A stretch of 64,000 nt of DNA from a virus (taxonomy: Duplodnaviria > Caudoviricetes), in the IMG/VR virus record IMGVR_UViG_2728369355_000004, one strand, 5' to 3'. The notes beneath the pieces are model-generated. The model searched no databases. It saw only the letters and a program-made list of their open reading frames with translations, and was not told the origin of the DNA. Shown in pieces: positions 4,577 to 50,703 of this stretch. The position numbers and the translations under genes were made by a program. Within the stretch, counting starts at the first letter, position 1. Every line of letters starts with the position of its first letter.

Positions 4577-5338
4577 TTAAACAGTCAACTTTAATATAGT
4601 AAGAGTTGTATTGGTAAAGTTATGAAGTTGGGCTGGAGTTGCATTTGCATTTACCAATTGAATAGTTGTAGGAACGACCCCTACAGTAATAATGACTTCT
4701 GCCGAAATTGGTCCGCCACCGTTACCCGTGAAGGGAACAGGGGTAACAGGGATTCCATTTACGGTAAGGTTAAAGTTAGCATCACCTTGGTTATGAATTG
4801 TAAAATCTATTAGATAGCTCCCCGTTTCGTTGATTGTTATCGTTGTAGATGGAGGAGTGAAAGTAAATGCACCACCAACATTAGCTAAAACTCCTGTAAA
4901 GGTAATTGGTGAGTTACCCGGAACTGTGTCAGTTCCCGTACCAGGATCTGCTCGGAAAACACTTAAGAAGTCTGTTATCCCGGCGCCTGCAGGCCCTGCT
5001 ACCCCCGTTGCTCCTGCTGGTCCTACCGCCCCCGCTGGACCTGCTGGACCTACCGCTCCTGCCGGTCCCACTGGTCCTGCTGGTCCTACTGCTCCTGCTG
5101 GTCCTGTTGGTCCGACAATTCCTTGAAAACCTTGTAGCCCTTGCTGGCCTTGAGCGCCTGGAACTCCCTGTGGACCCGGCAGTCCCTGCGGTCCCTGAGG
5201 TCCCTGAGGTCCTTGAGGTCCTTGAGGTCCTCGGATCCCTTTAACAATAACTTTCGGTAACACTTTGACTTTTTTAACTACACATCTTCTAAATTTTCTC
5301 CGATGCATATTCTTCTGCCAACAATAATGTCGAAACAT
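4577..5338 (-). CDS. collagen-like (GXY repeat) spore-surface protein, BclA-like
   Basis: GPQ/GPA/GAV triplet repeats followed by a beta-rich C-terminal domain; exact start uncertain. Confidence 0.75.
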
Positions 5339-6359: not shown

Positions 6360-6555
6360 ACTATCTGTTTTCAATCCTCAAAATACCCTTATCCAAAAGA
6401 CACTTGCTGTTTAGCTGAAGCTCCTAAAATATCATTTAGCATATTTTCAAAAACAGAAATCTGTCTCTTATCCATAGTTTCCAGCAATCGAACTTCCTTA
6501 ATTTCAAAGACCGGCCTGCCGTTGTAATAAGTAGTAAAGATCATTTTCTCCCATT
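6360..6555 (-). pseudogene. C-terminal relic of a phage HNH protein (homolog of 63342..64000)
   Basis: EVRLLETMDKRQISVFENMLNDILG versus EVRLLEAMDDKEMLVFTNMISDALN. Confidence 0.65.
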
Positions 6556-6788
6556 GTATTTACTCATCTAACCAGTCACCCTATAAGGAAGAACAATGCA
6601 GAAACTCGACTCGTCACTCTCGAGAGTGAATGGTTTAGAAGAGCCAGTATACCCGAGTGTAGTTACTTCGTTTTCTAAGACTTTCAAGACATCCAACACA
6701 TATTTTGCAATCAACATTAGTTTAAAAATTTTCCCCTTGAAAGCGATTGGCGTTATGCTTTCTGTTCGAGCAAACGCATATATAACAT

Positions 6789-6953
6789 CATGCGCTATTG
6801 CTACTTGAAGCTAGGGCTACAATGAAGTATGTACAGGAGAGACTTGGACATAGTAGCATCCAAATAACAGCCAACGTTTATGCACACATCTCCAAAAAAA
6901 TAGAGATGAATAGCATGGAGAACTATGAGTCTGTTACTGAAAATTTATTCTGA
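6789..6953 (+). pseudogene. tyrosine integrase C-terminal relic
   Basis: HALLLLEARATMKYVQERLGHSSIQITANVYAHISKK...*: box II LGH...T..Y motif; no N-terminal part. Confidence 0.85.
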
Positions 6954-7026
6954 TAATAAAATTTTTGGGGGCAATTAGGGGGGCAATTATAAATAAACTT
7001 AATAAATTTTTTTACCTACCACAAAC

Positions 7027-7063
7027 AAAAAAATCCCTCAACGCTTTGAGCGCCAAGGGATTT
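7027..7063 (-). terminator. terminator following the glnA 3' end
   Basis: AAATCCCT...AGGGATTT stem with a T run on the minus strand. Confidence 0.6.
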
Positions 7064-7069
7064 CCCATT

Positions 7070-7120
7070 TTAGTAAAGAGTCAGATATTGATCGCGTTCC
7101 CATTGATGAACCTGTGTTCT
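7070..7120 (-). other. glnA: att core: duplicated 3' end of the glutamine synthetase gene
   Basis: Reverse strand reads RTQVHQWERDQYLTLY*, matching the GSI-alpha C-terminus (B. subtilis RTQVHPWEREQYMSQY); no upstream glnA frame. Confidence 0.85.
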
Positions 7121-7556
7121 GTTTATGTACGAATTTATCGTTTCATCTTCTCCTATATTAGGATAACGATTTATAGAATATTTCATCAGAAGCGTTGTTC
7201 ACAATCTATCATAACTTTTCATGAGTTGGGGGACATTTGGGGGATGCTTAGGGGGACGACTTTAAAAGCAATGTAAGGGGCAAATGGGTGTGAACCATTC
7301 TGCCCCGTTTTGCATACTACTTTACGAAAGTGAATTCATGAATCCACGAAGGGGCTTCCACTATTACAACGACCGGCAGGGTAATCCCAAATACTTGAAG
7401 CATGGATAAGGTATAAATTTCAGCATTCTCTTTTTTTATGTCCCATTTAATCTTTAATCTGTGTATTTGCATTGATGCACGTCCTTTGTCGTATTTACTG
7501 GAGTGCCTCTCAGTGATATAATTTGCACGAATAGACATCTACTGGAGGATCTCTGA

Positions 7557-7769
7557 TTGAAAATCTCCCGTGGGAGATGCCGACTTAAGGAGTTACTCGA
7601 AGAACGTCGTATAAAACAAATCGATCTTGCTAGGCGCACAGGCTACAGCAGACATTTGATATCCAATTGGGCCAACAATCAGGATAAAATGTCGGCTGAT
7701 GTTATGATTAACGTAGCCTATGCTCTCGATTGTAGAATAGAAGACTTATACGAACTGATCTTTGAGTGA
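7557..7769 (+). CDS. XRE/Cro-like HTH regulator
   Basis: LKELLEERRIKQIDLARRTGYSRHLISNWAN HTH; ALDCRIEDLY; RBS GGAGG with TTG start. Confidence 0.85.
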   Translation: MKISRGRCRLKELLEERRIKQIDLARRTGYSRHLISNWANNQDKMSADVMINVAYALDCRIEDLYELIFE

Positions 7770-8009
7770 GCCTGTTGGCTCTCCCTTGGATAAAAGTATG
7801 GATAAACCATACTTTTTATAAATAACTCTACTCCCCTTCCTTTTTTCTTTTCATTAGCAATTATGCCTATAATCGAACATATCTATTTTTGACATGCCTA
7901 TACTACTATTAAATCCCAATATTAGGGTTTTGGCAACAAAAATTCGGGCGCTGAATGTCTCTTAACATTCGACATTATAAGACACTTATTTTCGACAAAA
8001 AAAGAGTCG

Positions 8010-8405
8010 CTATTTCGTAGCAACTCCTGTGAAGATTATTTTTGAATTTATGAAGCCCATTTCTTCAACAACCTCGTCAAATCGGTGGTAAGCGATTGGA
8101 CACCTTTTTGATGTTTTTGTTATTTCATCTTCAAAGTAAGCATCTTTGAAAATACCATTAACGATTTTCACTTTTTCTACATTAAGAGTATTACTTCTGT
8201 CCACATTCAAAAAGCGAAATCCGTTACAATTCAAAAAGTTTTCCCAATGTCTCAAGGTACCTACCATATAGTATGTTTTATCAAATGTGTGAACCAGTAT
8301 CTGATCTCGCTTTCTCCCCTTAGAAATGAAAAGAACTTTGTCCACTTGAACATTTTCGCCTTTTTCTATTCCTCCGGGATCTGCTGATACGGTTAAACTT
8401 AGCAT
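8010..8405 (-). CDS. stand-alone LytTR DNA-binding protein (no receiver domain)
   Basis: 131 aa; DKVLFI...VHT...GTL...GFRFLNVDRSNTLNVEKV matches the LytTR F.R.HRS..VN..KI pattern. Confidence 0.8.
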   Translation of the reverse strand: MLSLTVSADPGGIEKGENVQVDKVLFISKGRKRDQILVHTFDKTYYMVGTLRHWENFLNCNGFRFLNVDRSNTLNVEKVKIVNGIFKDAYFEDEITKTSKRCPIAYHRFDEVVEEMGFINSKIIFTGVATK

Positions 8406-8419
8406 TTAACATTCCCCGC

Positions 8420-8566
8420 TTACTTTAACAATTCTTTTGGTGGTTCGGGACTGTGAATCCATGACAGACTTGCCGTACTCACTGATGCAACCGCAAGTGT
8501 TGTCAACATTGCAGCAACATTGTAATACATACTTGCCTTCACTTTACTTGGTTTGGTTTTCTTCAT
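8420..8566 (-). CDS. agrD: AgrD-like cyclic lactone autoinducer propeptide, 48 aa
   Basis: Hand-translated MKKTKPSKVKASMYYNVAAMLTTLAVASVSTASLSWIHSPEPPKELLK*; AGGAGGTG RBS; H.PEPPKEL tail; overlaps the agrB end. Confidence 0.85.
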   Translation of the reverse strand: MKKTKPSKVKASMYYNVAAMLTTLAVASVSTASLSWIHSPEPPKELLK

Positions 8567-9098
8567 TTTTCACACCTCCTTCTATTAGTGTTAAACTCTG
8601 AACAAAAAAACTAGCAGCTACTACCGAATAACCCAACCACAGATTTAGAGCAACAATTGCAACTCCCGTAAACTTTAGCAACGGATAGTACTGCTTTGAT
8701 ATACGTGTCTTCCCCTCTATCCGCGATGGCGCGTAAACCAAGATAAGTACAATACTTATTATCGACGTAATAACGATCCAATTGTAATTAAAACTTGCGA
8801 AAGATAAAGCAGTAAGTAGAACTGTAGATACAACAATACACATTATATTGCTCTTTAAATGTATCCCTCCTACAATTTGACGCAACACTGAAAAAGATAT
8901 CATCGCTAACAAAGTTTCCTGCATCCTGTCCGTAAAAAACGAGATACCGATAGTCAGTAAAATAATTGAAACTGTATTGATCGCAACGGATATCCCGTGT
9001 TTTAGAACATCTATAGATGAAGGATGATCAGGGACAACTGTTTTGATGTGAGTTGCAATATTAAGAGCGATAGTGTCAAGACTTTTTATAGTAATCAC
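8544..9098 (-). CDS. agrB: AgrB-like peptide processing/export membrane protein
   Basis: LRQIVGGIHLKSNIMC (R..xGGxH....C catalytic motif) and LVYAPS. Confidence 0.9.
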   Translation of the reverse strand: MITIKSLDTIALNIATHIKTVVPDHPSSIDVLKHGISVAINTVSIILLTIGISFFTDRMQETLLAMISFSVLRQIVGGIHLKSNIMCIVVSTVLLTALSFASFNYNWIVITSIISIVLILVYAPSRIEGKTRISKQYYPLLKFTGVAIVALNLWLGYSVVAASFFVQSLTLIEGGVKNEENQTK

Positions 9099-9726
9099 GC
9101 TCCGTTTTTAATGCATAATACAAAAACATGGCAGATGCTAAGGCTATAAATAGAATACTTAAAAAGAAATTATTGACGTAAAACATAAATGCACAAGCTG
9201 CCAATACTCCTATTATTAAAATAATAACGAGTACATACTCCCACTTAAAACGTAGATTCTCATAATCTGCTGTAAAGCCTATTTTAAATTTATACAGAAA
9301 CCACGAAATAGCTAACACCCACGCACTGGTAACCGCTTGCGCTAACGATCCTTCTGCAGAGGTCTGCATTTCTGTTGTTAAGGTACCAAAAAGCATTAAT
9401 ATAATCGCTGCTTGGAATAATGTATACAAAAATGTGCCTGTAATGGATATGATGGCTGCCCAAATAATCGGCATCCTAACAACAGTGGTTATCAATAACG
9501 TGAACAATATAATGTTTATGGTTGGAGCAAAGAAAGCTAAAGAAGTTTCTTCCCTTAAAATGAAACTTTGCAAATTCATTATCAATCCAATAAACAATGC
9601 AGGCCATACATAGTCTAAAGCCCTAACTCTGAAAATAGTTAACATTAAAACGAACGCTGCAAATGTTTCTACAATTGAGAAAAGCAAGAACCTAATAGGC
9701 TCCCACATAACACATAACCCCTTCAC
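9076..9726 (-). CDS. polytopic membrane protein, AgrC sensor-domain-like, lacking a histidine kinase
   Basis: ~6-7 hydrophobic segments; ends at ~216 aa with no HisKA/HATPase; first gene of the agr-like operon; start may be 9708. Confidence 0.65.
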   Translation of the reverse strand: MKGLCVMWEPIRFLLFSIVETFAAFVLMLTIFRVRALDYVWPALFIGLIMNLQSFILREETSLAFFAPTINIILFTLLITTVVRMPIIWAAIISITGTFLYTLFQAAIILMLFGTLTTEMQTSAEGSLAQAVTSAWVLAISWFLYKFKIGFTADYENLRFKWEYVLVIILIIGVLAACAFMFYVNNFFLSILFIALASAMFLYYALKTERDYYKKS

Positions 9727-9832
9727 ATAATTGGTAACAAATATGCTTTAATTCTATATTTGTTACTTGTTAGAGGCAATCCAATTACCATGTTAAATGG
9801 AAGTATTTATGTATTATGTGAGGTAATTATTT

Positions 9833-10165
9833 TCAGCCTGCCGATATAATATCCTCCAGCTTAATCCAGCTATAATCATCTTCCCCTCGGAACAGCTTTA
9901 CTTCCCTACGCGCAGTGTTAATTGATGTAACTACACCAGTCATTTCCGTATCATCGAACGGGCTAAATACTGTCACTGTCACGGTCGTACGTGTATTGTA
10001 AGACTCTATTAAAGCCTGCTCAATCAACTGTACCTCTTGATCGTCCAGCTCGGGTTTACCGCGCCGCTGACGGTCTTTCATTAAACGTAAGTATCCTTCT
10101 TTATGCTCTGGCAAGATAATCCGCGAACTCTCCCATAAACCATTACCCTCAAGTTTCTTTCCCAT
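9833..10165 (-). CDS. yolD: YolD-like protein
   Basis: GNGLWESSRIILPEH...KPELDDQE...WIKLEDII, typical of the YolD family. Confidence 0.85.
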   Translation of the reverse strand: MGKKLEGNGLWESSRIILPEHKEGYLRLMKDRQRRGKPELDDQEVQLIEQALIESYNTRTTVTVTVFSPFDDTEMTGVVTSINTARREVKLFRGEDDYSWIKLEDIISAG

Positions 10166-10204
10166 GTATGTAGCCTCCTGATGTAATATGTTCAAATTAT
10201 ATCC

Positions 10205-10218
10205 CGAACATTTGTTCC
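10205..10218. promoter_or_regulatory. LexA (Cheo/SOS) box upstream of yolD
   Basis: CGAACATTTGTTCC fits GAAC-N4-GTTC, 40 bp before the ATG. Confidence 0.75.
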
Positions 10219-10326
10219 TTACAAGGGCTTTTGTTTTCTACTTCTAAGACTTTTGTGCTAGAAAATTATTCCTAGGTCATATATACTAATTTCACTATAA
10301 TATTACCAATAGATAGGGGTTATGTA

Positions 10327-11217
10327 ATGACTGCAATTGCTGTGATTGCTTTGCTGGCTTTTTTTGTGTTTTTTGTTTTGTGGGCTATAGCTTTAATAAG
10401 AAAGAACGGCAAGGCTAAGAAAATGTTTCTCTTTGGTTTAGCTGCTCTCTTAGTATTTATTATTGGAATATCAGTCGCTGACACTCAGAAACCAACCGAA
10501 ACTAATTCAAAATCTGTAGCTACTACGCCTGTTAAAGAGAAAGAAGTTACTACTGAATCAGTACACAAGGAACAGACTGACGCTAAAAAACCATTGATTG
10601 ACACATCGCTTCCTTTTGATAAGTTTTCATCTGCACTCTTTGCATTGCCAGTATCCAAGCAAGGGGAAACATTCGACAGTGTAAGAAATCAAGTTGTTTC
10701 ATGGTCAGGTGTTGTTATTGAAGCTGGATCAAGCAGCCTCTATGTCTATGGTAAACCAGCAGATTACAACGGTGAACTATGGTCAGATATTAGCGCTGAA
10801 AAGAAAAAACTCGGGGATGTTATTGTTGTAAAAGTTTCAGATCGTTCAGAATTGAATGGTCTTAATCCGGGGGATATAGTTACCTTTAAGGGTGAACTTG
10901 GTTCCCGTGGTGTTAAGGGAGAAGCCAATTGGAAACTATATAACGGAAAAATAGAGGGTCGGACAGTAGCAGAATCGCCAAACCTCGGAACCATTACCAA
11001 AGCTAAATATAACAAGATTAAAAATGGAATGACTTATGAGGAAATTGCGAAAATTATCGGTGGTCCCGGTGAGGCTCTTTCAGAGGTTGGTGAAAAAGGA
11101 GACGAATTTTATACTGTAATGTATTCGTATAAAGGTGAAGTCGGACCTGGTGCAAATGCCGTTTTCACATTCCAAGGCAACAAACTACAAGCAAAAGCAC
11201 AATTTGGTCTCGAATAA
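10327..11217 (+). CDS. membrane-anchored surface protein with C-terminal DUF3862/BLIP-like domain
   Basis: Two N-terminal TM helices; C-terminal ITKAKYNKIKNGMTYEEIAKIIG...ANAVFTFQGNKLQAKAQFGL. Confidence 0.7.
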   Translation: MTAIAVIALLAFFVFFVLWAIALIRKNGKAKKMFLFGLAALLVFIIGISVADTQKPTETNSKSVATTPVKEKEVTTESVHKEQTDAKKPLIDTSLPFDKFSSALFALPVSKQGETFDSVRNQVVSWSGVVIEAGSSSLYVYGKPADYNGELWSDISAEKKKLGDVIVVKVSDRSELNGLNPGDIVTFKGELGSRGVKGEANWKLYNGKIEGRTVAESPNLGTITKAKYNKIKNGMTYEEIAKIIGGPGEALSEVGEKGDEFYTVMYSYKGEVGPGANAVFTFQGNKLQAKAQFGLE

Positions 11218-11324
11218 AACAGCCCCGGAGCAATCCGGGGTTTTAATATTTCTATAACCATTATGACTATTGTCAACAGAGGTAATTCCATTGCCTGTAT
11301 AAAATGAATATGATAACATAAGAA

Positions 11325-11445
11325 TAGAAAAAGGGAACGGCTACCACCGCTCCCTTGTACGACTTACCGCTATAAGAGCGGTCAGCAATTGAGGTTTGAT
11401 CCAGAAATAGACCGTATCCTCGCCAGGGCGGTCTATTTCCGTTTA
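11325..11445 (+). ncRNA. putative antisense antitoxin RNA
   Basis: Convergent with the toxin 3' end; terminator-like hairpin GAAATAGACCG...CGGTCTATTTC (11404-11439) overlaps the toxin stop; ends approximate. Confidence 0.55.
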
Positions 11446-11516
11446 TGGAAAGAAAGTATCAGAATCACCAACGTTGCGAATTGAATCATCAACATCAGCG
11501 TGTCTTTAACTTCCAT
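11433..11516 (-). CDS. type I toxin (holin-like toxin peptide), 27 aa
   Basis: MEVKDTLMLMIQFATLVILILSFHKRK*; RBS GGAGGTGA; single TM plus basic tail. Confidence 0.8.
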   Translation of the reverse strand: MEVKDTLMLMIQFATLVILILSFHKRK

Positions 11517-12425: not shown

Positions 12426-12833
12426 CTATTTTTCCGTTAATTTATTAAATATCTCTCTATCATTGGAAGTGAAGTCGGAAATCCGTTTCTTTTTCACGTA
12501 TGTGTTGGTACTTGAATCCAATTTAATGAAGCTATTTTCACCAACCACATATACGATATTTTTTTTTATCTTATATGACACAATATTATCAACAGCTTTT
12601 TCCAGTGGATCAGCAAGATGATTATAAAGTATTAAAGGGTCTTGCGGCCCCCCTCTCAAAATTTGAAAAGTCCCGTCACCAAAATATTCTACGGTATCTT
12701 TGCCTGATGGGTATTTATACTTCGTATTATCTCCAAAATTCACCAGGAAAATTAGAGTAGTAGTTGTAACTAGTATAGCAATCAAGATAATGATGTATCT
12801 ACGCTTCATCTGCAATTCATACCTCACTTCCAA
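12426..12833 (-). CDS. membrane-anchored protein, candidate immunity protein
   Basis: N-terminal TM; overlaps the stop of the upstream 380-aa gene. Confidence 0.6.
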   Translation of the reverse strand: MEVRYELQMKRRYIIILIAILVTTTTLIFLVNFGDNTKYKYPSGKDTVEYFGDGTFQILRGGPQDPLILYNHLADPLEKAVDNIVSYKIKKNIVYVVGENSFIKLDSSTNTYVKKKRISDFTSNDREIFNKLTEK

Positions 12834-13966
12834 GCTTTTCTTATATCAGTTACTGTAACATACGATGTATACTCATTGAGCGTTCCCCATGATTCCATTA
12901 AATTTGTTAGATTGGCCGCAGCCCAACCAAGTTTGTTATCCCCAGTAAACATTTGTTTAAAATTATATTCGAAATTATATACATCATAATATATTGCAGT
13001 AATTTTCCATTGCCCGTGAACGTAATCTCCATTTATTTTATAATACATGTTGTGAAAAGCATTATATAAATCTCTATTACTTTCTAGCCCCTCAGATCCA
13101 TTATATGAAAAACTTTTAACTTTATTAGCTTTAGCTTTTTTGACTGCGGCATTAACTATGGCGATGTGCTCTTTAGATTTTTTAACTTGCTGCGCCTCGT
13201 ATGACCATTCGTTAAAGTTTAAATTTCCTGGTTTGTAATCAAGTGAATGTTTAAGTAAATTGGCTGTGATGTCCCCGTACTTTTTTCGAGCTATAGGAAC
13301 AGCTACTAATGTAAATGCTTTACGATCAGGATAATGTATTACAGTGTCTGTCGAATCTTTTACCTTCTCTACGCCTCGTACCCAAGTCTTTTCTAGTTCT
13401 ACCATAGGATTTTCAAACGGAAAAGTAATATTTCCTGCATATACTAACATATTCTTACTATATGCACCTTCCAGTACTTTTTGCGAGACATCAGACTGAT
13501 CCTTTTCTCTTGTTTCCTTAGGTTCTAACTGAGGACTGTATTGAATTTTTCCCAATTGATCTTCTTTTTGTTTTAGAACAAGTTCAAACTCAAGGATCTC
13601 TTTACTGGTATCAATCTGTTCTTGATACTTAACTACATAAGCGTGTGTAAACGTAATATCTCGGATTGTGTTTTCATTTCTAACGATTTGGATATTACAT
13701 TTGCGATAGTAATCCTCACTATCAGGTTTATATTCTGTGTTTGCCCATGTATACAGCATGTTGGAATTATCCGCATTGTCTATAACTGAAGGAAGCGAAT
13801 GAAGCGGAATTTTGCTTCGAATATGTAGCGAATGAGCCAAGTTTGTAGACTTAGCTGAAAGGTTTATGGAACTATTATTCTTATAAGTAAAGCCAGTGAT
13901 TTCACCTTTTACAAACTCAATTGGCTCACCACCGGATTTGCGTTCTATTCTTAATGAAATACTCAT
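12824..13966 (-). CDS. Hcp/TssD-like N-terminal domain fused to a variable C-terminal (putative toxin) domain
   Basis: RBS AGGAG; W...DYYRK...IRDITFTHAYVVKYQEQID...FELVLKQKED resembles TssD / clostridial 'membrane-associated protease 1' tube proteins. Confidence 0.55.
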   Translation of the reverse strand: MSISLRIERKSGGEPIEFVKGEITGFTYKNNSSINLSAKSTNLAHSLHIRSKIPLHSLPSVIDNADNSNMLYTWANTEYKPDSEDYYRKCNIQIVRNENTIRDITFTHAYVVKYQEQIDTSKEILEFELVLKQKEDQLGKIQYSPQLEPKETREKDQSDVSQKVLEGAYSKNMLVYAGNITFPFENPMVELEKTWVRGVEKVKDSTDTVIHYPDRKAFTLVAVPIARKKYGDITANLLKHSLDYKPGNLNFNEWSYEAQQVKKSKEHIAIVNAAVKKAKANKVKSFSYNGSEGLESNRDLYNAFHNMYYKINGDYVHGQWKITAIYYDVYNFEYNFKQMFTGDNKLGWAAANLTNLMESWGTLNEYTSYVTVTDIRKAWK

Positions 13967-14219
13967 TAAAATAATCTCCTTTGTTAATTTAATCTGGTTT
14001 TGTAGGAAAAATTTATGAAAACTAATTTCCAAATATTAATATATACGAAAAATATTAAATAGTAAACATATTTTCAACGTGGTAAAGGACGACAATTGAG
14101 TTTCGTAACCTCGGCAAATTATATGAAGAAGCTAAAACGAAATATAATCCAGCCTAACACAGGCCTGTTAAAAACGATAAAAGCTCTGCCGACCAATTAA
14201 GGTTAGCAGAGCTTTTAAT

Positions 14220-17255: not shown

Positions 17256-17378
17256 TTAAGCCCCTCCTTGTTGATCGAAAAGTACGATATTCTGATGGTG
17301 GCTATGAGTCTGAGCAGGTATAGTCACGATAAACAAAAAACTAGCTGCGACAATCAATAGCGCCATTTTTCTTAACAT
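17256..17378 (-). CDS. aloP: AloP-like quorum-sensing propeptide, 40 aa
   Basis: Hand-translated MLRKMALLIVAASFLFIVTIPAQTHSHHQNIVLFDQQGGA*; signal peptide plus Gly-rich C-terminus; overlaps the receptor stop. Confidence 0.75.
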   Translation of the reverse strand: MLRKMALLIVAASFLFIVTIPAQTHSHHQNIVLFDQQGGA

Positions 17379-18756
17379 CAGCTATCCACACCCTTTCAAT
17401 AAATTCTAAATATGCTGCCTTGGTTTCGGATACTGCATAAGCTCGATAACGCTCAAACAACACCATACATTTTATAAAATAAGTCTCATTATTTAGTGTA
17501 TGATAACTTACCATTGAATACATCAAGTATTTGAAGCCATCGTCGTATGTACCTCGATATAAATGATAATAAGCTAATTCATAACTCAAACGTGCATACT
17601 GTTCTGGTATAACTTGTTTCGTATATATGTCATTAGATTGCGGAAATTGCAAAAGTGAATTAACATCCGTTTCAAAACGCTGAAGTATATCACTTACGTC
17701 TATCTGGTATCGGTTTGCCGTCATCATAATGTTCAACAGTTGGGCAACTTTATCTTGTTCAGATGTATCTGATGGTGCACCAATGTATTCAACATAATCA
17801 TATAAGGCGTTTATATCTCCAGATAAAAGCTTATTTGCGACAGCGTTAGCTTGCGCCCAACCTTTGAATAAATTAATCCAATATAGTGTATCCTCGTCCA
17901 TCTCTCTAACCCACTCTAAATCCGCATAGGCGTATGTATATTGTAGAGCTTGCTGATAATCGCCTTTGGCTTCACAGACACCTGCACACAGCAGGTCAGC
18001 ATAAGAAATGTACACAAACAGAGGACGCGTTAGCTTGTTAGTAGATTCACATTCCCGACTCTTGTGTTCGTGTTTCAAATTATATTGAATTTCCGCTTTA
18101 GCTCTCATTAATTTAGCTATTTCGTCAACCTTGTCCCATTTACGCAAAGACCTGTACACATTAGCCAAATCCTTTAACGCATCAAGTTGTTCTAAATCAT
18201 CTAGGCGCTCGACATAAGGCTCAAATAGTATAGCTGCCTTGTGATTGCGGCTTTGATCGTCTCCAACTTGAATCGTAAATATACGATATTGACAGACTGC
18301 CAATCGTTCTGAATGTTGATATTTCTCCGCTTCAGCTACCCCCTCATAGAGCAGCAATGCAGCCGCATGTCGTTCCTGCGACAACAATTCTTCTGCAATG
18401 TCAAATAGTTTGGGCGAATACAGTAGATTGTCCATGATAGCTCCCACCACTCGACGGATCGCATCCAACTTGTCCAAGTCCGCACAGCGAAACAAAAATG
18501 GCTCGATTCGCCTCATATTTGGAGGATGTTCGATGATGTAATTTTCCACGAACAAGTCGTAAAAATGGCCTTCTGGCAAACCCATAGCCTCAGTAATTCG
18601 ATCCAGTTGTTTAATAGACAAAGGCTTATTTCCTGTTACAATAGCACTTACTGCTCCCCTATTCATATCCGCAATATGACCAAATTGTGTTAAACTCAAT
18701 CCTTCTTGTTGTAGGTATCTGTCTAATTCTGCTCTAATCGTAGGTGTATGCTTCAT
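17341..18756 (-). CDS. aloR: RRNPP-family receptor (XRE HTH plus TPR), AloR-like
   Basis: N-terminal HTH (LSLTQFGHIADMNRGAVSAIV) and helical TPR-like body, 471 aa; adjacent propeptide. Confidence 0.8.
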   Translation of the reverse strand: MKHTPTIRAELDRYLQQEGLSLTQFGHIADMNRGAVSAIVTGNKPLSIKQLDRITEAMGLPEGHFYDLFVENYIIEHPPNMRRIEPFLFRCADLDKLDAIRRVVGAIMDNLLYSPKLFDIAEELLSQERHAAALLLYEGVAEAEKYQHSERLAVCQYRIFTIQVGDDQSRNHKAAILFEPYVERLDDLEQLDALKDLANVYRSLRKWDKVDEIAKLMRAKAEIQYNLKHEHKSRECESTNKLTRPLFVYISYADLLCAGVCEAKGDYQQALQYTYAYADLEWVREMDEDTLYWINLFKGWAQANAVANKLLSGDINALYDYVEYIGAPSDTSEQDKVAQLLNIMMTANRYQIDVSDILQRFETDVNSLLQFPQSNDIYTKQVIPEQYARLSYELAYYHLYRGTYDDGFKYLMYSMVSYHTLNNETYFIKCMVLFERYRAYAVSETKAAYLEFIERVWIADVKKNGAIDCRS

Positions 18757-18996
18757 ATCATATCCACCTTCCACACAGAAATTCCAAAACTTTTTATTAT
18801 TGCATTCTATTGTTGTCCATAATTTAGCAGTTGTCAATAAGTTTTGAAATATATGTCATGCAATACTTAAATGAAATATGTATTTTCGAATATTAATGGT
18901 TTGTTACCATTTTGTTAATAATAATGTACATTTTATTCCTTTTTCTGTGGTATGATTGGTTAGTAGTACAAATTATACCATTCGAGAGGACGGTTT

Positions 18997-23169: not shown

Positions 23170-24324
23170 ATGCATACAAGAAAAGAGATAAGATCGCTAT
23201 CACCGGAGGAACTCCTTGCGTTTCGAAGGGCTATGATTGAATTGCAGCGGCGTGATGGAACGAATAGTTACATCGATCTTGCAGGATACCATTGGATACC
23301 ACGAGAATTTTGTCCGCATGGGGAATCTATTTTCCTTCCGTGGCATAGGGTCTATATCCGCTTATTTGAACAAGCACTACAATCAATCGACCCTTCTGTT
23401 TCTTTGCCTTTTTGGGATTGGACCTCAAGCGAATCGTTAGCTCAAGGCTTGGCTCCTGCACATGGCGATGAAATGTTCGATGACGGCGGAGTACCCCGAC
23501 TGAATCCTCTCTTCTCCGGTCCAATAGAGGATCGGAGTCGTCAGACTCGCCGAAATCCTCCGCAAGCTCTCAGACGTTTAAGGGAACACGCCAGCGCAGC
23601 AATTGATGCAATGAGTGATTCAAATGATTTTATGAGTTTTACTGTTGCAATCGAGGGGCCACATGGGGACATACACGGTTGGGTTGGTGGGCCCGGTGGA
23701 GATATGTCAACAATTCTACGTTCTGCATACGACCCAATATTCTGGTCTCACCATGCTAACGTTGATCGACAGTGGGCTATTTGGCAAAAGTGTAACCCAC
23801 AGGGAAATCCTCCACCTGAGATAATGTCATTATCATTGGAATCCCGCGGTTTTCCGGGGTGGTCTGTGGCTGATACGCTTGATCTCTCGTCACCACGACT
23901 TGATTATACGTATGAAGGACTAGATACAGTTACTTGTCCTATACGGACTTTACATGAATTATTTGGTAAACCTCGAATTAAAGTGGAAATTAAAAATATA
24001 GTTATTACCAGGGGTTCCTTTATTGTTGATATCTACCTCCGTAGGAAGAACTCTGCTCTGGAGGAGGGCGTTTTCAGTGGATCGTTTAGCATTTTCGGGC
24101 TCCCAAGCAACGAAGGGGGACATTTTCCCGGCCATCATCATCACCATACGCCCGTAAACAGGCTTATTGATGTTACGGAAGCTTTTTACGGCATGGAACT
24201 TGGCGAGGATCAATTGCATTATGTTGATATACAACTTCAGGCAGTTAATATGGATGGTGAATCCGTAGATCCTGCTGCTCTCCCGATTGAAGGGGTAGAA
24301 CTAACAATCCCCGATAGGTCATGA
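23170..24324 (+). CDS. tyrosinase (type-3 copper), moron on the opposite strand
   Basis: CuA H...CPHG..FLPWHR and CuB EGPHGDIH...AYDPIFWSHHANVDR. Confidence 0.92.
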   Translation: MHTRKEIRSLSPEELLAFRRAMIELQRRDGTNSYIDLAGYHWIPREFCPHGESIFLPWHRVYIRLFEQALQSIDPSVSLPFWDWTSSESLAQGLAPAHGDEMFDDGGVPRLNPLFSGPIEDRSRQTRRNPPQALRRLREHASAAIDAMSDSNDFMSFTVAIEGPHGDIHGWVGGPGGDMSTILRSAYDPIFWSHHANVDRQWAIWQKCNPQGNPPPEIMSLSLESRGFPGWSVADTLDLSSPRLDYTYEGLDTVTCPIRTLHELFGKPRIKVEIKNIVITRGSFIVDIYLRRKNSALEEGVFSGSFSIFGLPSNEGGHFPGHHHHHTPVNRLIDVTEAFYGMELGEDQLHYVDIQLQAVNMDGESVDPAALPIEGVELTIPDRS

Positions 24325-47114: not shown

Positions 47115-49541
47115 TTATTCTACAATTTCCAGATCCAAGTATTGTCCATCCCAAACATCAAGTTTATACTTTCCGGGCGGCAACTCGCCTGTAGAAATAA
47201 TAACTGGTTTATTTACTTCATCATCCGTAACAATTATCTTTTTACCCCAGTTTTCTGCGACCAAATCGTCGTAGTTACCTTGGCCTCCCCAAACAAATGT
47301 ATTTAGCAGATACACTTCTGAAACATCTGAAAGAGAGAATGTAATATCGCCTCCTTTTTTAACCTTTAATATATCCCCGATAGGTTGAATCATTGTAATT
47401 CTGACCGTTCTTCTATTTCCCCAGGTCTGAAATTCTTTATTGAATTCACCATTGGATGTAACCACAGCGTCTGTGACTAAACGGAAATTATAAACCAACC
47501 GATCCTCCAAATGTTTAGGCAATATAAAGACTTTATTGTCCTCAACTCTTACAGTCCCATTTTCCTTTGTGAAAGGCGTAAAAGGACTGTCACCAACAGA
47601 CCACTGAACGATATCTTCTGTTGTCTTCCCGTCCGCAAGCTGTAATAAGCGATTATAATCAAAAGAGAATTGATCAAGTCTATCCTTTCTTTCAGGATAT
47701 TGTACAAATATCGGTGACTGATCCAGAGGCTCGTTCTCATCCAAAACCGTTATTTCCTTGCTATGAAAGTTACTATTTTTGTCATAAACCGTCAGATCAA
47801 ACTCATAGTTTTTGGGATAATTCCAATGATTAATATCATATGTCGCGAAACTGACGGTTTTATTAGCCGGAACCTCCATTTTCAAAACCTCGCCGCTTTC
47901 GACACCCAACTCAAGGGATTGGAGATTACGGTAATCTATGAATTCACTTGAAAAGTAAGCAGTGCCATCATAAGAGCTAGTAAAATAAACGGACTCTCCG
48001 ACTGTTACTATTTTTTTAGGAACAGAAATGTTAGCGCCCCCATTATGCTCTGGTGCTTGAGGTGTATCATCTTTCTTGTCGTCACTTTTTTTATGATCAT
48101 CTTTTTTGGAATTATCGAATTCATTAGAGTTACTAGAAGAACCCCCACCGCCACCTGATGTTGTTGGCCCCTGTAATCCCAAAGTTTTTGACGAATCGCC
48201 TATTGTGACTTTAACATCACTACTTACCTTGTCGCCATTTGTCAGAGATTTAGGTTTTGTTTGAAAAGAAACATTTTCAGCATTAACTACGGCTTTATCA
48301 ACAGAACCTAATCCTATTACTTTGGCAGCAGCATTAAGAACTAACGAGAGAATAGAAGACTCTTTTGCTGTATCTATGGTTGTACCCGTAGCGTTATCAG
48401 CTACGTTTAATGCATCAATCTGTCCATTTGGGATATTTACATTAATAGCGAATGCTTCTACATTCACAGTGTGAAAATAACCTGTAAGGCTCACATTAGA
48501 TTTTGCGGGGAGCTCATTTGTTAGAGTAACTCGATCAACACTTGCTCCTTGTGAGACATCGAGGGCTGCGCCCGTCTTGATTTTTACTTCGCTAATGGAC
48601 GTTGCTCCTTCTGCCACCAAACGAACAGTTCCATCCACTTTGTTTACAATGATGCTAACCAGCATAGAATTGTTCAGATGAACGCTATGCTCTCCACCGC
48701 CGTAAACGTAGGTTTGACCGTGAATTTTAACATTTTTCAAGAATACGTCGCCGTTCCCGACGGCTTTCCCGATAATTAAATCACCCGCGATTTCCGTATT
48801 TTGAAGCGTTACACCCGTTGTGTTGATGATAACATTGCCTGCCTGCTTGTCGAGTCCAGTCGAAGGCCCATATGTTCCTGATTCTCCATACCAAGCACCA
48901 AAATGATTAACAGCACGATCAAGAATCGTAACCGCCTCAGCACGAGTCAACGATTTTTGTGGCTGAAATGTACCATTCTGGTAACCCTCAATAATACCGG
49001 CTGCAACTACAGCATTAACGGCCTTTTGGGACCAATTGTGCAGTGATGTGCTATCTTTAAAGGTTTTATTGGTATCAGAAGAAGAGATCTGAAGTAATTG
49101 GTTTACAGTAACAGCCGCTTCTTCTCTACTCAATACTTGCGTAGGACGAAAGCTACCATCTTCAAATCCTTTCATATATCCAGCATAAACTGCATCAGTA
49201 ACGGTTGAAGCAAACCAATCATCTTTATTCACATCGGTAAAAGATGCTGCTTGTCCTGGCTGAATTTGAAATGCACGATTTAGTAAAGCAGCCCATTCAC
49301 TTCTCGTAATCGGACGATTCGGTTCAAAACGAGCGTTTTCTACACCTGAAACCACACCTCGGTGGCTCCATTTTGTAACGTTATCCGTTGCCCAATGGTT
49401 CACCATATCCCCATAAGGTTGAGATACAGTAGAACTTTCTTCCTTTGTTACTTGGTGTGAACTATCGGCTGCGAATATGGGGCTAGCCCATACAGAGGTC
49501 GCTAAAATTCCAGCCGTGAAAACATTAACCCACTTCTTCAT
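47115..49541 (-). CDS. S-layer homology (3x SLH) surface protein, moron
   Basis: Signal peptide; three SLH repeats (FEPNRPITRSE, FRPTQVLSREE, FQPQKSLTRAE). Confidence 0.9.
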   Translation of the reverse strand: MKKWVNVFTAGILATSVWASPIFAADSSHQVTKEESSTVSQPYGDMVNHWATDNVTKWSHRGVVSGVENARFEPNRPITRSEWAALLNRAFQIQPGQAASFTDVNKDDWFASTVTDAVYAGYMKGFEDGSFRPTQVLSREEAAVTVNQLLQISSSDTNKTFKDSTSLHNWSQKAVNAVVAAGIIEGYQNGTFQPQKSLTRAEAVTILDRAVNHFGAWYGESGTYGPSTGLDKQAGNVIINTTGVTLQNTEIAGDLIIGKAVGNGDVFLKNVKIHGQTYVYGGGEHSVHLNNSMLVSIIVNKVDGTVRLVAEGATSISEVKIKTGAALDVSQGASVDRVTLTNELPAKSNVSLTGYFHTVNVEAFAINVNIPNGQIDALNVADNATGTTIDTAKESSILSLVLNAAAKVIGLGSVDKAVVNAENVSFQTKPKSLTNGDKVSSDVKVTIGDSSKTLGLQGPTTSGGGGGSSSNSNEFDNSKKDDHKKSDDKKDDTPQAPEHNGGANISVPKKIVTVGESVYFTSSYDGTAYFSSEFIDYRNLQSLELGVESGEVLKMEVPANKTVSFATYDINHWNYPKNYEFDLTVYDKNSNFHSKEITVLDENEPLDQSPIFVQYPERKDRLDQFSFDYNRLLQLADGKTTEDIVQWSVGDSPFTPFTKENGTVRVEDNKVFILPKHLEDRLVYNFRLVTDAVVTSNGEFNKEFQTWGNRRTVRITMIQPIGDILKVKKGGDITFSLSDVSEVYLLNTFVWGGQGNYDDLVAENWGKKIIVTDDEVNKPVIISTGELPPGKYKLDVWDGQYLDLEIVE

Positions 49542-50112: not shown

Positions 50113-50703
50113 TTATCCTGCTTTCCTGGTTACAGAATTCTTTTGTTTAACCTGCATAATCATTTCAATAAGCTGCTCTCGGTTAATCAAGCGAACGTTA
50201 TTGGATCTTGCTAGTCTGTATGCTTGCTCAGTGTAATCGCTATTTGTCACGACCCATGCTGAAGATGCACGGTAATGTGCTACCGCACCGTAAACCTCCT
50301 GAACCGCTTTAAGCCCAACATTTTTACTGTACCGTTTCGCCTGAACTACGATACGCTGACCGTTTTTTGTAAGAACCAGATCGGCACCGTAATCTCCAGA
50401 AGCTTGTGTAACCTCAGCTTTGTATCCTTGAGCTCTGAACAGATGTCCTAAATATTTTTCGAATTGATGACCATCCATTTTATCAATTTCAGCAATTCCA
50501 GAATTACGTAGCCTTGTTGCAGCAGCCATTTGACGATAAAAGATAAATGCTATGACCATTGCTACTGCTACAAAAGATGCAAAAACAGAGGCACCGATTG
50601 AACCCGTAACTGAGTAGATAAAGAAAAACGGGGCTATTAGCGCAATCCCTGCAATAGCCTCTTCAATAGAATTTTTCTGCTTTCTTCTCCGTCTTCTAGC
50701 CAT
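50113..50703 (-). CDS. membrane-anchored Mrr-like restriction endonuclease domain protein
   Basis: Two TM, then FEKYL...GDYGADLV...VVQAKRY...AWVVTNS. Confidence 0.85.
   Translation of the reverse strand: MARRRRRKQKNSIEEAIAGIALIAPFFFIYSVTGSIGASVFASFVAVAMVIAFIFYRQMAAATRLRNSGIAEIDKMDGHQFEKYLGHLFRAQGYKAEVTQASGDYGADLVLTKNGQRIVVQAKRYSKNVGLKAVQEVYGAVAHYRASSAWVVTNSDYTEQAYRLARSNNVRLINREQLIEMIMQVKQKNSVTRKAG

Follow-up and report, generated by a model that had tools for sequence, protein, structure and literature searches.

A conserved phage-borne Agr cassette of Paenibacillus with a sensor-only membrane protein and a receiver-less LytTR protein

Introduction

Agr signalling is the textbook example of peptide sensing through a histidine kinase, and an Agr-type locus that has dispensed with its kinase raises the question of how a peptide signal could cross a membrane without phosphorylation. 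Such a locus is present in a 64,000-nucleotide stretch of viral DNA (IMG/VR record IMGVR_UViG_2728369355_000004; Duplodnaviria, Caudoviricetes), referred to here in its entirety as the window. At positions 8010–9726, on the minus strand, four intact and closely coupled frames encode a sensor-like membrane protein, AgrB, AgrD and a LytTR protein. A first-pass annotation made from the DNA letters described these as a prophage-encoded, kinase-free operon with four intact frames, and this description is confirmed by the analysis reported here. By curated domain models, none of the four proteins has a kinase or a receiver domain. The cassette is conserved and carried by phages, annotations have largely failed to recognise it, and sequence comparison indicates that it is a phage-carried derivative of Agr that has lost both phosphotransfer modules.

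Results

Homology of the membrane protein to kinase sensor domains

The first protein of the cassette has no Pfam or NCBIfam family match. Its AlphaFold model (120 sequences; pLDDT 94.3, pTM 0.90) consists of seven long helices, with the C-terminus lying about 8 residues past helix 7. Foldseek comparison of the model with the PDB returns nothing at E 1e-3 or better, and the ESM Atlas yields unnamed clusters only, with no usable named match. Two candidate relatives were rejected: Pex3, for which the best VIA-align Z in a wide search is 8.3, within the noise expected of helical bundles, and CorA, which is the best PDB sequence-profile match yet has an E value of 0.43.

The protein is consistently short among its relatives. 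The nearest of these (n = 24) are all 184–217 aa long, and when a profile of the sensor was compared with 1.84 billion representatives, giving 413 matches, the best 150 of the 413 were all 248 aa or shorter. A word-indexed search for longer, fused forms found none among 2306 candidates, a misleading result, as a whole-genome profile search later turned up distant relatives that are fused to kinases. This profile matches in 61 of 401 Bacillota genomes, and the 25 loci examined are those fetched from outside the window's own family. At eight of the 25 the match is to the N-terminal ~200 aa of kinases of 445–460 aa, at 14 a sensor frame of 149–279 aa is followed by a separate frame of 262–304 aa, and at the remaining three the sensor part alone was seen. 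AgrB is adjacent at 22 of the 25 loci, and the Pfam domains SPOB_a, HATPase_c and HATPase_c_5 were confirmed in all five full-length and both split kinases tested.

Alignment of profiles with hhalign relates the cassette protein both to the sensor parts of the full-length AgrB-adjacent kinases (97.1%, E 6.1e-11, 166 columns) and to the split sensors of AgrB-linked kinases (98.4%, E 4.8e-15); the partners in these alignments are unnamed kinases of other Bacillota, and AgrC of S. aureus is not itself among them. The comparison with AgrC sensor domains that had been suggested for this protein is thus positive, in the form of homology to the sensor domain of AgrB-linked kinases. The first cassette gene thus occupies the place that agrC has in agrC-agrB-agrD loci, and its product is a homologue of the sensor half only of AgrB-linked histidine kinases. 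The AgrC-like kinase encoded elsewhere in the same bacterial genome was considered as the source of the domain and rejected (hhalign to its sensor part, 0.3%).

The split kinases are found at 14 loci of other Bacillota (L124, L127, L130–L134, L136–L138 and L140–L143), where the frame of ~150–280 aa corresponds to sensor helices 1–5 and the frame of 262–304 aa to the last helices, the DHp part and the ATPase.

A stand-alone relative of the AgrA DNA-binding domain

The fourth protein matches PF04397 at 26.3 bits (cut-off 22.6, E 8.5e-6) and has no second domain. The best solved relative of a profile built from 44 family members is the LytTR domain of S. aureus AgrA (3bs1, E 8.5e-5). The predicted structure (pLDDT 93.2) leads to the same protein, the top Foldseek match being the AgrA LytTR domain 4xqn (E 4.5e-6, TM 0.84 on the target), followed by a B. 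cereus LytTR domain and ComE. The fourth cassette protein is a stand-alone homologue of the DNA-binding (LytTR) domain of AgrA.

Of 93 genomes of the genus, 24 (the window's own included) have LytTR-only homologues, at 29 places in all and in frames of 72–171 aa; a single split gene accounts for the two shortest, and three of the matches cross a stop codon. The absence of both phosphotransfer domains noted in the first-pass annotation is thus upheld, with close sensor relatives and LytTR-only frames that are all short. Some cassettes are followed by receiver-less proteins of 236–257 aa consisting of two tandem LytTR domains (L147 3589–4362, L148 3429–4202 and L149 3411–4121; likewise in L184, L185, L187, L189, L191 and L192).

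AgrB and the AgrD precursor

The two middle genes are more readily recognised. AgrB matches PF04647 at 66.4 bits (cut-off 23, E 2.7e-18), and also NCBIfam PRK01100, under its cut-off (E 4.4e-12). AgrD matches TIGR04223 at 31.9 bits (cut-off 19, E 1e-7). A small AgrD-like frame follows AgrB at all 35 loci compared, and all 35 have the same pattern: a hydrophobic leader, the motif A-[S or C]-x-x-x-[hydrophobic]-[H, Y or N], and a tail ending P-x-E-L-L. The second position of the motif, five residues before the conserved H, Y or N, is Ser at 30 loci and Cys at five. This alternation within one alignment column is the pattern predicted for the residue that closes a lactone or thiolactone ring, and it fits the earlier reading of AgrD as the precursor of a Ser-lactone. 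For the window's AgrD the predicted ring is S-L-S-W-I (a lactone) with the tail HSPEPPKELLK, a ring size of five residues being taken by analogy with known peptides.

A second AgrD-like subtype lacks Ser or Cys at the ring position (L004 5496–5627, L115 4013–4141, L116 4010–4138, and L177–L191), the L004 copy being in the window's own genome, at about 156 kb. It has a conserved K/R-K-x-hydrophobic-hydrophobic-G before a P-x-E-L tail (e.g. ...KTVFGAKPIPAELKK); candidates for its chemistry are a linear peptide, a lactam, or other.

Conservation of the cassette and its variants

The arrangement of the cassette was followed from both of its ends. At loci found through LytTR, the sensor and AgrB are present in the same order in 29 of 29. 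Through the sensor, 36 loci were found, spanning Paenibacillus, Cohnella and one Bacillota metagenome bin, and sensor, AgrB and LytTR are present at 31 of them, one with a split LytTR gene; four have sensor and AgrB only, and one (L076) lacks AgrB, its sensor gene leading straight into LytTR. At none of the 36 is there a kinase frame within 5 kb. Order and sizes hold down to 25–30% identity, in Paenibacillus, Cohnella, Brevibacillus phages and the Bacillota metagenome bin. Because the same order is seen in 29 of 29 and 31 of 36 loci, the arrangement is far beyond chance, and a synteny survey of the kind envisaged in the first-pass annotation thus finds the same kinase-less set of genes repeatedly. 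The missing phosphotransfer domains are a conserved state and no recent truncation. The annotation had recognised that homologous loci with complete kinases would make these genes truncations; this holds to the extent that distant families do have kinases, and fails within the Paenibacillaceae, where no locus examined had a kinase frame beside the sensor gene.

The sensor family, with 98 matches in 47 of the 93 genomes of the genus, is commoner than its LytTR partner as first counted. A further 40 loci were therefore picked for having no strong LytTR match (three of them duplicate L050, L056 and L057). AgrB is adjacent to the sensor at 36 of the 40 and the sensor stands alone at four; no kinase frame lies within 3.5 kb at any. 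At 13 of the 40 there is nonetheless a LytTR-type gene after AgrD, single or in tandem, of which 12 are of a diverged subtype, as in phage Harrison, and one is of the window's subtype; of four LytTR-type members from these loci compared with Pfam, two were above the cut-off and two below. Two more of the loci have a similar-sized gene after AgrD, one matching at 15.6 bits and the other not at all.

Variant orders are also present. At L147 and L148 the sensor, AgrB, a LytTR-only protein and a tandem-LytTR protein are followed by a response regulator and a 636-aa kinase, at L149 the sensor is followed by a LytTR-only and a tandem-LytTR protein with no AgrB, and at L150 the order is AgrB, sensor, LytTR. 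Broken copies include a split LytTR in L055 and its counterpart in genome G020, and a split AgrB in L050. At L168 (2957–4096) one 379-aa frame joins sensor and AgrB; the two may be truly fused, or a single-base sequencing error may fall within their usual overlap.

The cassette in isolated phages and in earlier reports

Of the queries made of a phage collection, the cassette DNA, the sensor protein and the LytTR protein gave no match, and AgrB alone found phage cassettes, with eight records representing Brevibacillus phages Abouo, Emery and Davies and P. larvae phages Paisley and Harrison. Abouo gp44–47 and Harrison genes 38–41 encode a membrane protein, AgrB, a small peptide and a gene annotated as a peptidase, with an integrase adjoining. 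Their membrane proteins match the sensor profile (E 1.8e-32 for Abouo, 2e-34 for Harrison), and the "peptidases" are LytTR proteins by PF04397 (29.4 and 29.1 bits, cut-off 22.6). The same four genes are thus in the same order as in the window, with Davies, Emery and Paisley related by the AgrB match only. Unlike the window's AgrD, with Ser at the ring position, the Abouo and Harrison AgrD peptides have neither Ser nor Cys there.

Parts of this had been anticipated. The presence of agrB, agrD and agrC in C. difficile phage phiCDHM1, mentioned in the first-pass annotation, was reported by Hargreaves et al. (2014, PMC3901668). The authors saw no response regulator; in an aside they credit Davies, Emery and Abouo with AgrB, a putative AgrD, and membrane proteins that might be homologues of AgrC lacking the ATPase domain. 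In the available text of two phage-genome papers (PMC5056774 and PMC4168068) AgrB appears in tables only, and a table in the former calls the fourth phage gene a dipeptidyl aminopeptidase/peptidase. For P. polymyxa, a different agr locus is described with the peptide ICFGLF and an acetylase (2025, PMC12180512, in part). A literature search found no description of the fourth phage gene as LytTR, of a LytTR-only partner in an Agr cassette, or of a kinase-free Agr circuit, though large supplementary tables may list such loci. The membrane component was thus briefly foreshadowed in 2014; the homology to kinase sensor domains, the kinship of the LytTR protein with AgrA and the predicted AgrD ring are new.

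Discussion

Comparison with known systems

The cassette has features of several systems without corresponding fully to any. With the canonical agrBDCA of S. aureus it shares AgrB, a seven-helix sensor domain, a LytTR domain whose nearest relative is that of AgrA, and an AgrD with a five-residue ring position and a charged tail ending P-x-E-L-L. It departs from it in that the sensor has no DHp or ATPase part, the regulator has no receiver, the nucleophile is Ser and not Cys, the gene order is sensor, B, D, regulator, and the whole is carried by a prophage. The agrC-agrB-agrD loci of other Bacillota likewise have the sensor gene directly upstream of agrB and agrD; these, however, have either a full kinase or a short sensor with a separate kinase, whereas the cassette has no kinase part and has an added LytTR-only gene. 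The agr3 locus of phiCDHM1 is similarly phage-borne and lacks a response regulator, a likeness taken from the text of PMC3901668 and not from a comparison of sequences.

A further parallel is with the LytTR regulatory systems HdrRM and BrsRM of Streptococcus mutans, which, in the sections of PMC6193735 drawn on here, pair a stand-alone LytTR protein with a membrane protein that inhibits it, with no phosphorelay; those sections make no link to Agr. The membrane proteins of these systems are of other families and are not accompanied by signal peptide genes.

A proposed direct-contact circuit

There being neither kinase nor receiver, direct contact is the only simple route by which the sensor could reach LytTR. 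From AgrD, AgrB would make a Ser-lactone peptide (ring S-L-S-W-I) that is secreted and that the sensor-only protein would bind from the outside of the cell. The sensor might then pass the signal on by contacting LytTR directly, holding or releasing it in the manner of anti-sigma factors and of the streptococcal LytTR regulatory systems, and the freed LytTR could switch the cassette and other phage or host promoters on or off as lysogen density changes. We regard this circuit, in which by analogy the sensor would control LytTR, as evenly balanced between acceptance and doubt. A role in the choice between lysis and lysogeny is speculation, drawn only from the position of the cassette beside the integrase, repressor and cro region.

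Several observations favour such a circuit. First, sensor–LytTR pairs without AgrB are present at two independent loci, L076 and L149. Second, LytTR keeps its place at the 29 of 29 and 31 of 36 loci above, and LytTR genes recur across several diverged cassette subtypes. Third, the sensor loops predicted from the positive-inside rule to face inwards are more conserved (2.85, 2.25 and 2.08 bits) than those predicted to face outwards (1.40, 1.22 and 0.85 bits).

Other observations weigh against it. The assignment of inner and outer loops is itself a prediction. The sensor is linked more tightly to AgrB (35 of 36 and 36 of 40 loci) than to LytTR: 25 of the 40 additional loci have no LytTR-like gene, and neither do the other two of the three sensor-AgrB-AgrD loci in the window's own genome. 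Of these 25, 14 resemble one chromosomal locus that is widespread in relatives and that has, in all five copies inspected, conserved frames of housekeeping size (217 and 173 aa) after AgrD; a sensor at this LytTR-less locus needs another output or does another job. The parallel with the LytTR regulatory systems is also incomplete. In all of the cases described in PMC6193735 the regulator gene is upstream, whereas here the membrane protein gene comes first, with AgrB and AgrD in between, and the promoters described there carry direct repeats, whereas none was found upstream of the cassette in 9700–9850 (151 bases, seed 6), which has inverted repeats only.

Alternative explanations

The tight linkage to AgrB could instead mean that the sensor acts on the production side with AgrB and AgrD, in maturation or export of the peptide, in feedback on AgrB, or as a sink for the cell's own peptide, with LytTR acting independently and according to dosage, for example as a phosphorylation-blind mimic or competitor of host AgrA-type regulators. 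The sensor gene is directly upstream of AgrB, mostly overlapping it, at the 35 and 36 loci counted above and at three of three in its own genome, the single 379-aa frame of L168 fuses the two, and many copies have no LytTR gene nearby. A precedent may exist in C. perfringens, where, according to PMC2706048, complementation of a mutant by agrB and agrD also required two hypothetical genes that lie upstream. Against this, the homology is to a ligand-sensing domain and not to an enzyme or transporter, no protease or transporter family or fold was matched, and the L076 and L149 pairs do without AgrB altogether; moreover, the agrBD genes of the different P. polymyxa locus made peptide in B. subtilis, as stated in the accessible text of PMC12180512. 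We consider a production-side role unlikely, while giving it more credence than the alternatives that follow.

Less probable still, and indeed improbable, is that the kinase is encoded elsewhere, in a host or neighbouring two-component system, with the sensor serving as co-receptor or decoy and LytTR competing with the phosphorylated regulator at shared DNA sites. The genome does contain one AgrA-like regulator beside a 433-aa HATPase_c_5 kinase, about 3.3 Mb away, and the L147 and L148 cassettes are followed by a LytTR response regulator and the 636-aa kinase. The 433-aa kinase, however, is a conserved family gene (64 of 151 genomes), seven of 12 other genomes of the genus that have it contain no sensor-family gene, and its sensor part is unlike that of the cassette (the hhalign value of 0.3% given above). 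Nor was any kinase frame found within 5 kb or 3.5 kb at the 36 and 40 loci, or any short AgrC-type catalytic frame of the split kind in the window's own genome. As to its surroundings, this kinase belongs to a conserved unit, L007 (G000:C1, about 3,531,900–3,533,700), composed of a GntR-type gene, a 258-aa LytTR response regulator and the 433-aa kinase, with no AgrB nearby.

That the cassette is a decaying, non-functional relic of agrCBDA, as the broken copies in L055, G020 and L050 and the three LytTR matches that cross a stop codon might suggest, is highly improbable given four intact frames in the window, order and sizes that hold to 25–30% identity, and two folds predicted from deep alignments at pLDDT above 93.

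Layout of the cassette and its prophage

The features of the cassette and its immediate neighbours are listed in Table 1. The sensor frame as read from a GTG spans 9076–9726 (216 aa); alignment with 17 relatives makes the ATG at 9708, giving 210 aa, the most likely true start. The sensor and AgrB genes overlap by 23 nt, as do those for AgrB and AgrD, and 14 nt separate AgrD from LytTR.

Table 1. Features of the cassette and its surroundings, in window coordinates
Feature	Position	Strand	Description
Sensor-only membrane protein	9076..9708	-	210 aa, seven helices; AgrC-type sensor homologue, no kinase
AgrB, peptidase processing and cyclising AgrD	8544..9098	-	184 aa; PF04647
AgrD precursor	8420..8566	-	48 aa; TIGR04223
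Receiver-less LytTR DNA-binding protein	8010..8405	-	131 aa; PF04397
Promoter-like site TTGCCT-17-TAGAAT	9751..9779	-	Upstream of sensor gene; consensus scan, 9/12 matches
Perfect 11-nt inverted repeat, 11-nt spacer	9734..9766	.	Brackets -10 hexamer; repeat search, 100% complementary
Terminator-like hairpin with T run	8002..8028	-	End of LytTR gene; scan, 11 pairs
att repeat	7070..7122	.	53 bp, 88.7% to stretch 68,489 bp rightward; 29-bp identical core 7080–7108
YolD-like gene	9833..10195	-	PF08863, E 4.5e-23; recurrent upstream neighbour
Cro/C1-type HTH gene	7557..7769	+	PF13443, E 2.5e-14; between cassette and att
Integrase C-terminus fragment	6798..6953	+	Older related prophage remnant, outside present prophage; PF00589, 23.4 bits, below cut-off

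The promoter scan is weak when taken alone, with 10 sites in the region against 10.4 expected; the promoter-like block is kept in the polymyxa-group loci. Terminator-like sites number three against 1.2 expected. The inverted repeat bracketing the -10 hexamer is possibly an operator, and in relatives its promoter-distal arm is conserved and its other arm variable. A further 21-nt imperfect inverted repeat (81%; 9704–9724 and 9800–9820) is built of tandem ACATAAY units, with one copy upstream of the promoter-like site and the other covering the start codon of the sensor gene together with its ribosome site. An Rfam scan of 6500–11500 gave one sub-threshold, snoRNA-like row attributable to chance.

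Contigs from RNA libraries (two runs, one RNA-seq sample) cover 7019–10078 and 7019–10182 at ~97–98% identity and break before 10258; they are no proof of transcription, and a contig of 45 kb occurs in one such run. Over the cassette, the raw reads of two RNA runs with the same species label give zero depth because those two strains do not contain the prophage.

The host appears to be a Paenibacillus of the polymyxa group, closest to P. ottowii at 98%, judging from the names of the nearest proteins and loci. The window contains phage genes for a GH25 lysin, an antirepressor and a tail protein at 20–30 kb and the small terminase subunit at 54–55 kb, and beyond its right end come genes for replication, a CI-like repressor and an integrase of 395 aa, with glnA next. 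The second copy of the att repeat lies between the integrase and the 3′ end of glnA. With the repeat at both ends, the prophage therefore extends over about 7.1–75.6 kb in window coordinates, roughly 68.5 kb, at glnA. Raw reads from two prophage-free strains (same species label) stop at 7066–7108, covering the att core only and not the cassette, and in one relative the flanks are ~8 kb apart, with no LytTR-only gene. The att repeat, the integrase, the lysogeny module and the occurrence of the same cassette in isolated phages together substantiate the earlier view that the cassette is prophage-borne.

The cassette is ~0.9 kb inside the left end of the prophage, after the lysis genes and an accessory stretch, and upon circularisation of the phage genome this end comes to adjoin the genes for the integrase and the repressor. 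P. ottowii has two copies of the cassette, 59,740 bp apart, one of them abutting the integrase, repressor and cro genes of the following prophage, an arrangement that points to tandem lysogeny. Left of att, 6389–6953 holds remnants of an older, related prophage that suggest an earlier tandem lysogeny at glnA. One resembles DNA polymerase III beta, with 84.7% identity between 6534–6766 and part of that gene in the present prophage, and the other is an integrase C-terminus.

Similar neighbours recur at other loci. Among the 36 sensor-found loci a YolD-like homologue is just upstream of the cassette in 10, corresponding to gp40 in phage Abouo, and a Cro/C1-type HTH homologue is beside it in eight. 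Lysis genes are 1–3 kb upstream in L058, L061–L064 and L068, repressor and cro genes flank the cassette in L060, L061, L063 and L076, and 16 of the 40 additional loci have other genes in common with this prophage.

Other genes of the window include, in the accessory arm, a 498-aa protein with an N-terminal HTH_3 domain (17341–18837), which weakly matches phage transcription-regulator PHROGs and has homologues near the cassette in L052 and L059, and, also within the prophage arm, a protein with an Hcp/TssD-like domain (12824–14032). A tyrosinase gene (23170–24324, plus strand; PF00264, E 3.5e-37) is between the antirepressor and tail genes, and the structural genes include those for an 808-aa protein with three SLH domains (47115–49541) and a Mrr-type restriction endonuclease (50113–50703). 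Outside the prophage, 4577–5338 encodes a BclA-type collagen-repeat protein.

Implications

The cassette represents a conserved and widespread form of Agr that keeps the sensor and the DNA-binding domain and drops the kinase and the receiver. An immediate gain is in annotation, where phage genes now called "hypothetical membrane protein" and "peptidase" can receive new names. Should the direct-contact circuit prove true, it would join two fields so far separate, that of Agr and that of the orphan LytTR regulatory systems, for which no signal is known, and would show a two-component pathway rebuilt as a contact-based one. Its place on temperate phages, close to the lysogeny genes, makes the cassette a candidate for a second form of phage communication by peptide, alongside arbitrium. 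In its broadest form, which we hold as a tentative and rather doubtful possibility, temperate phages of the Paenibacillaceae and of Brevibacillus would use a phosphotransfer-free peptide circuit in which an AgrC-derived sensor directly gates an AgrA-derived LytTR protein, giving them an arbitrium-like, density-dependent say over lysogeny maintenance, induction or the traits of hosts that include plant-growth-promoting Paenibacillus.

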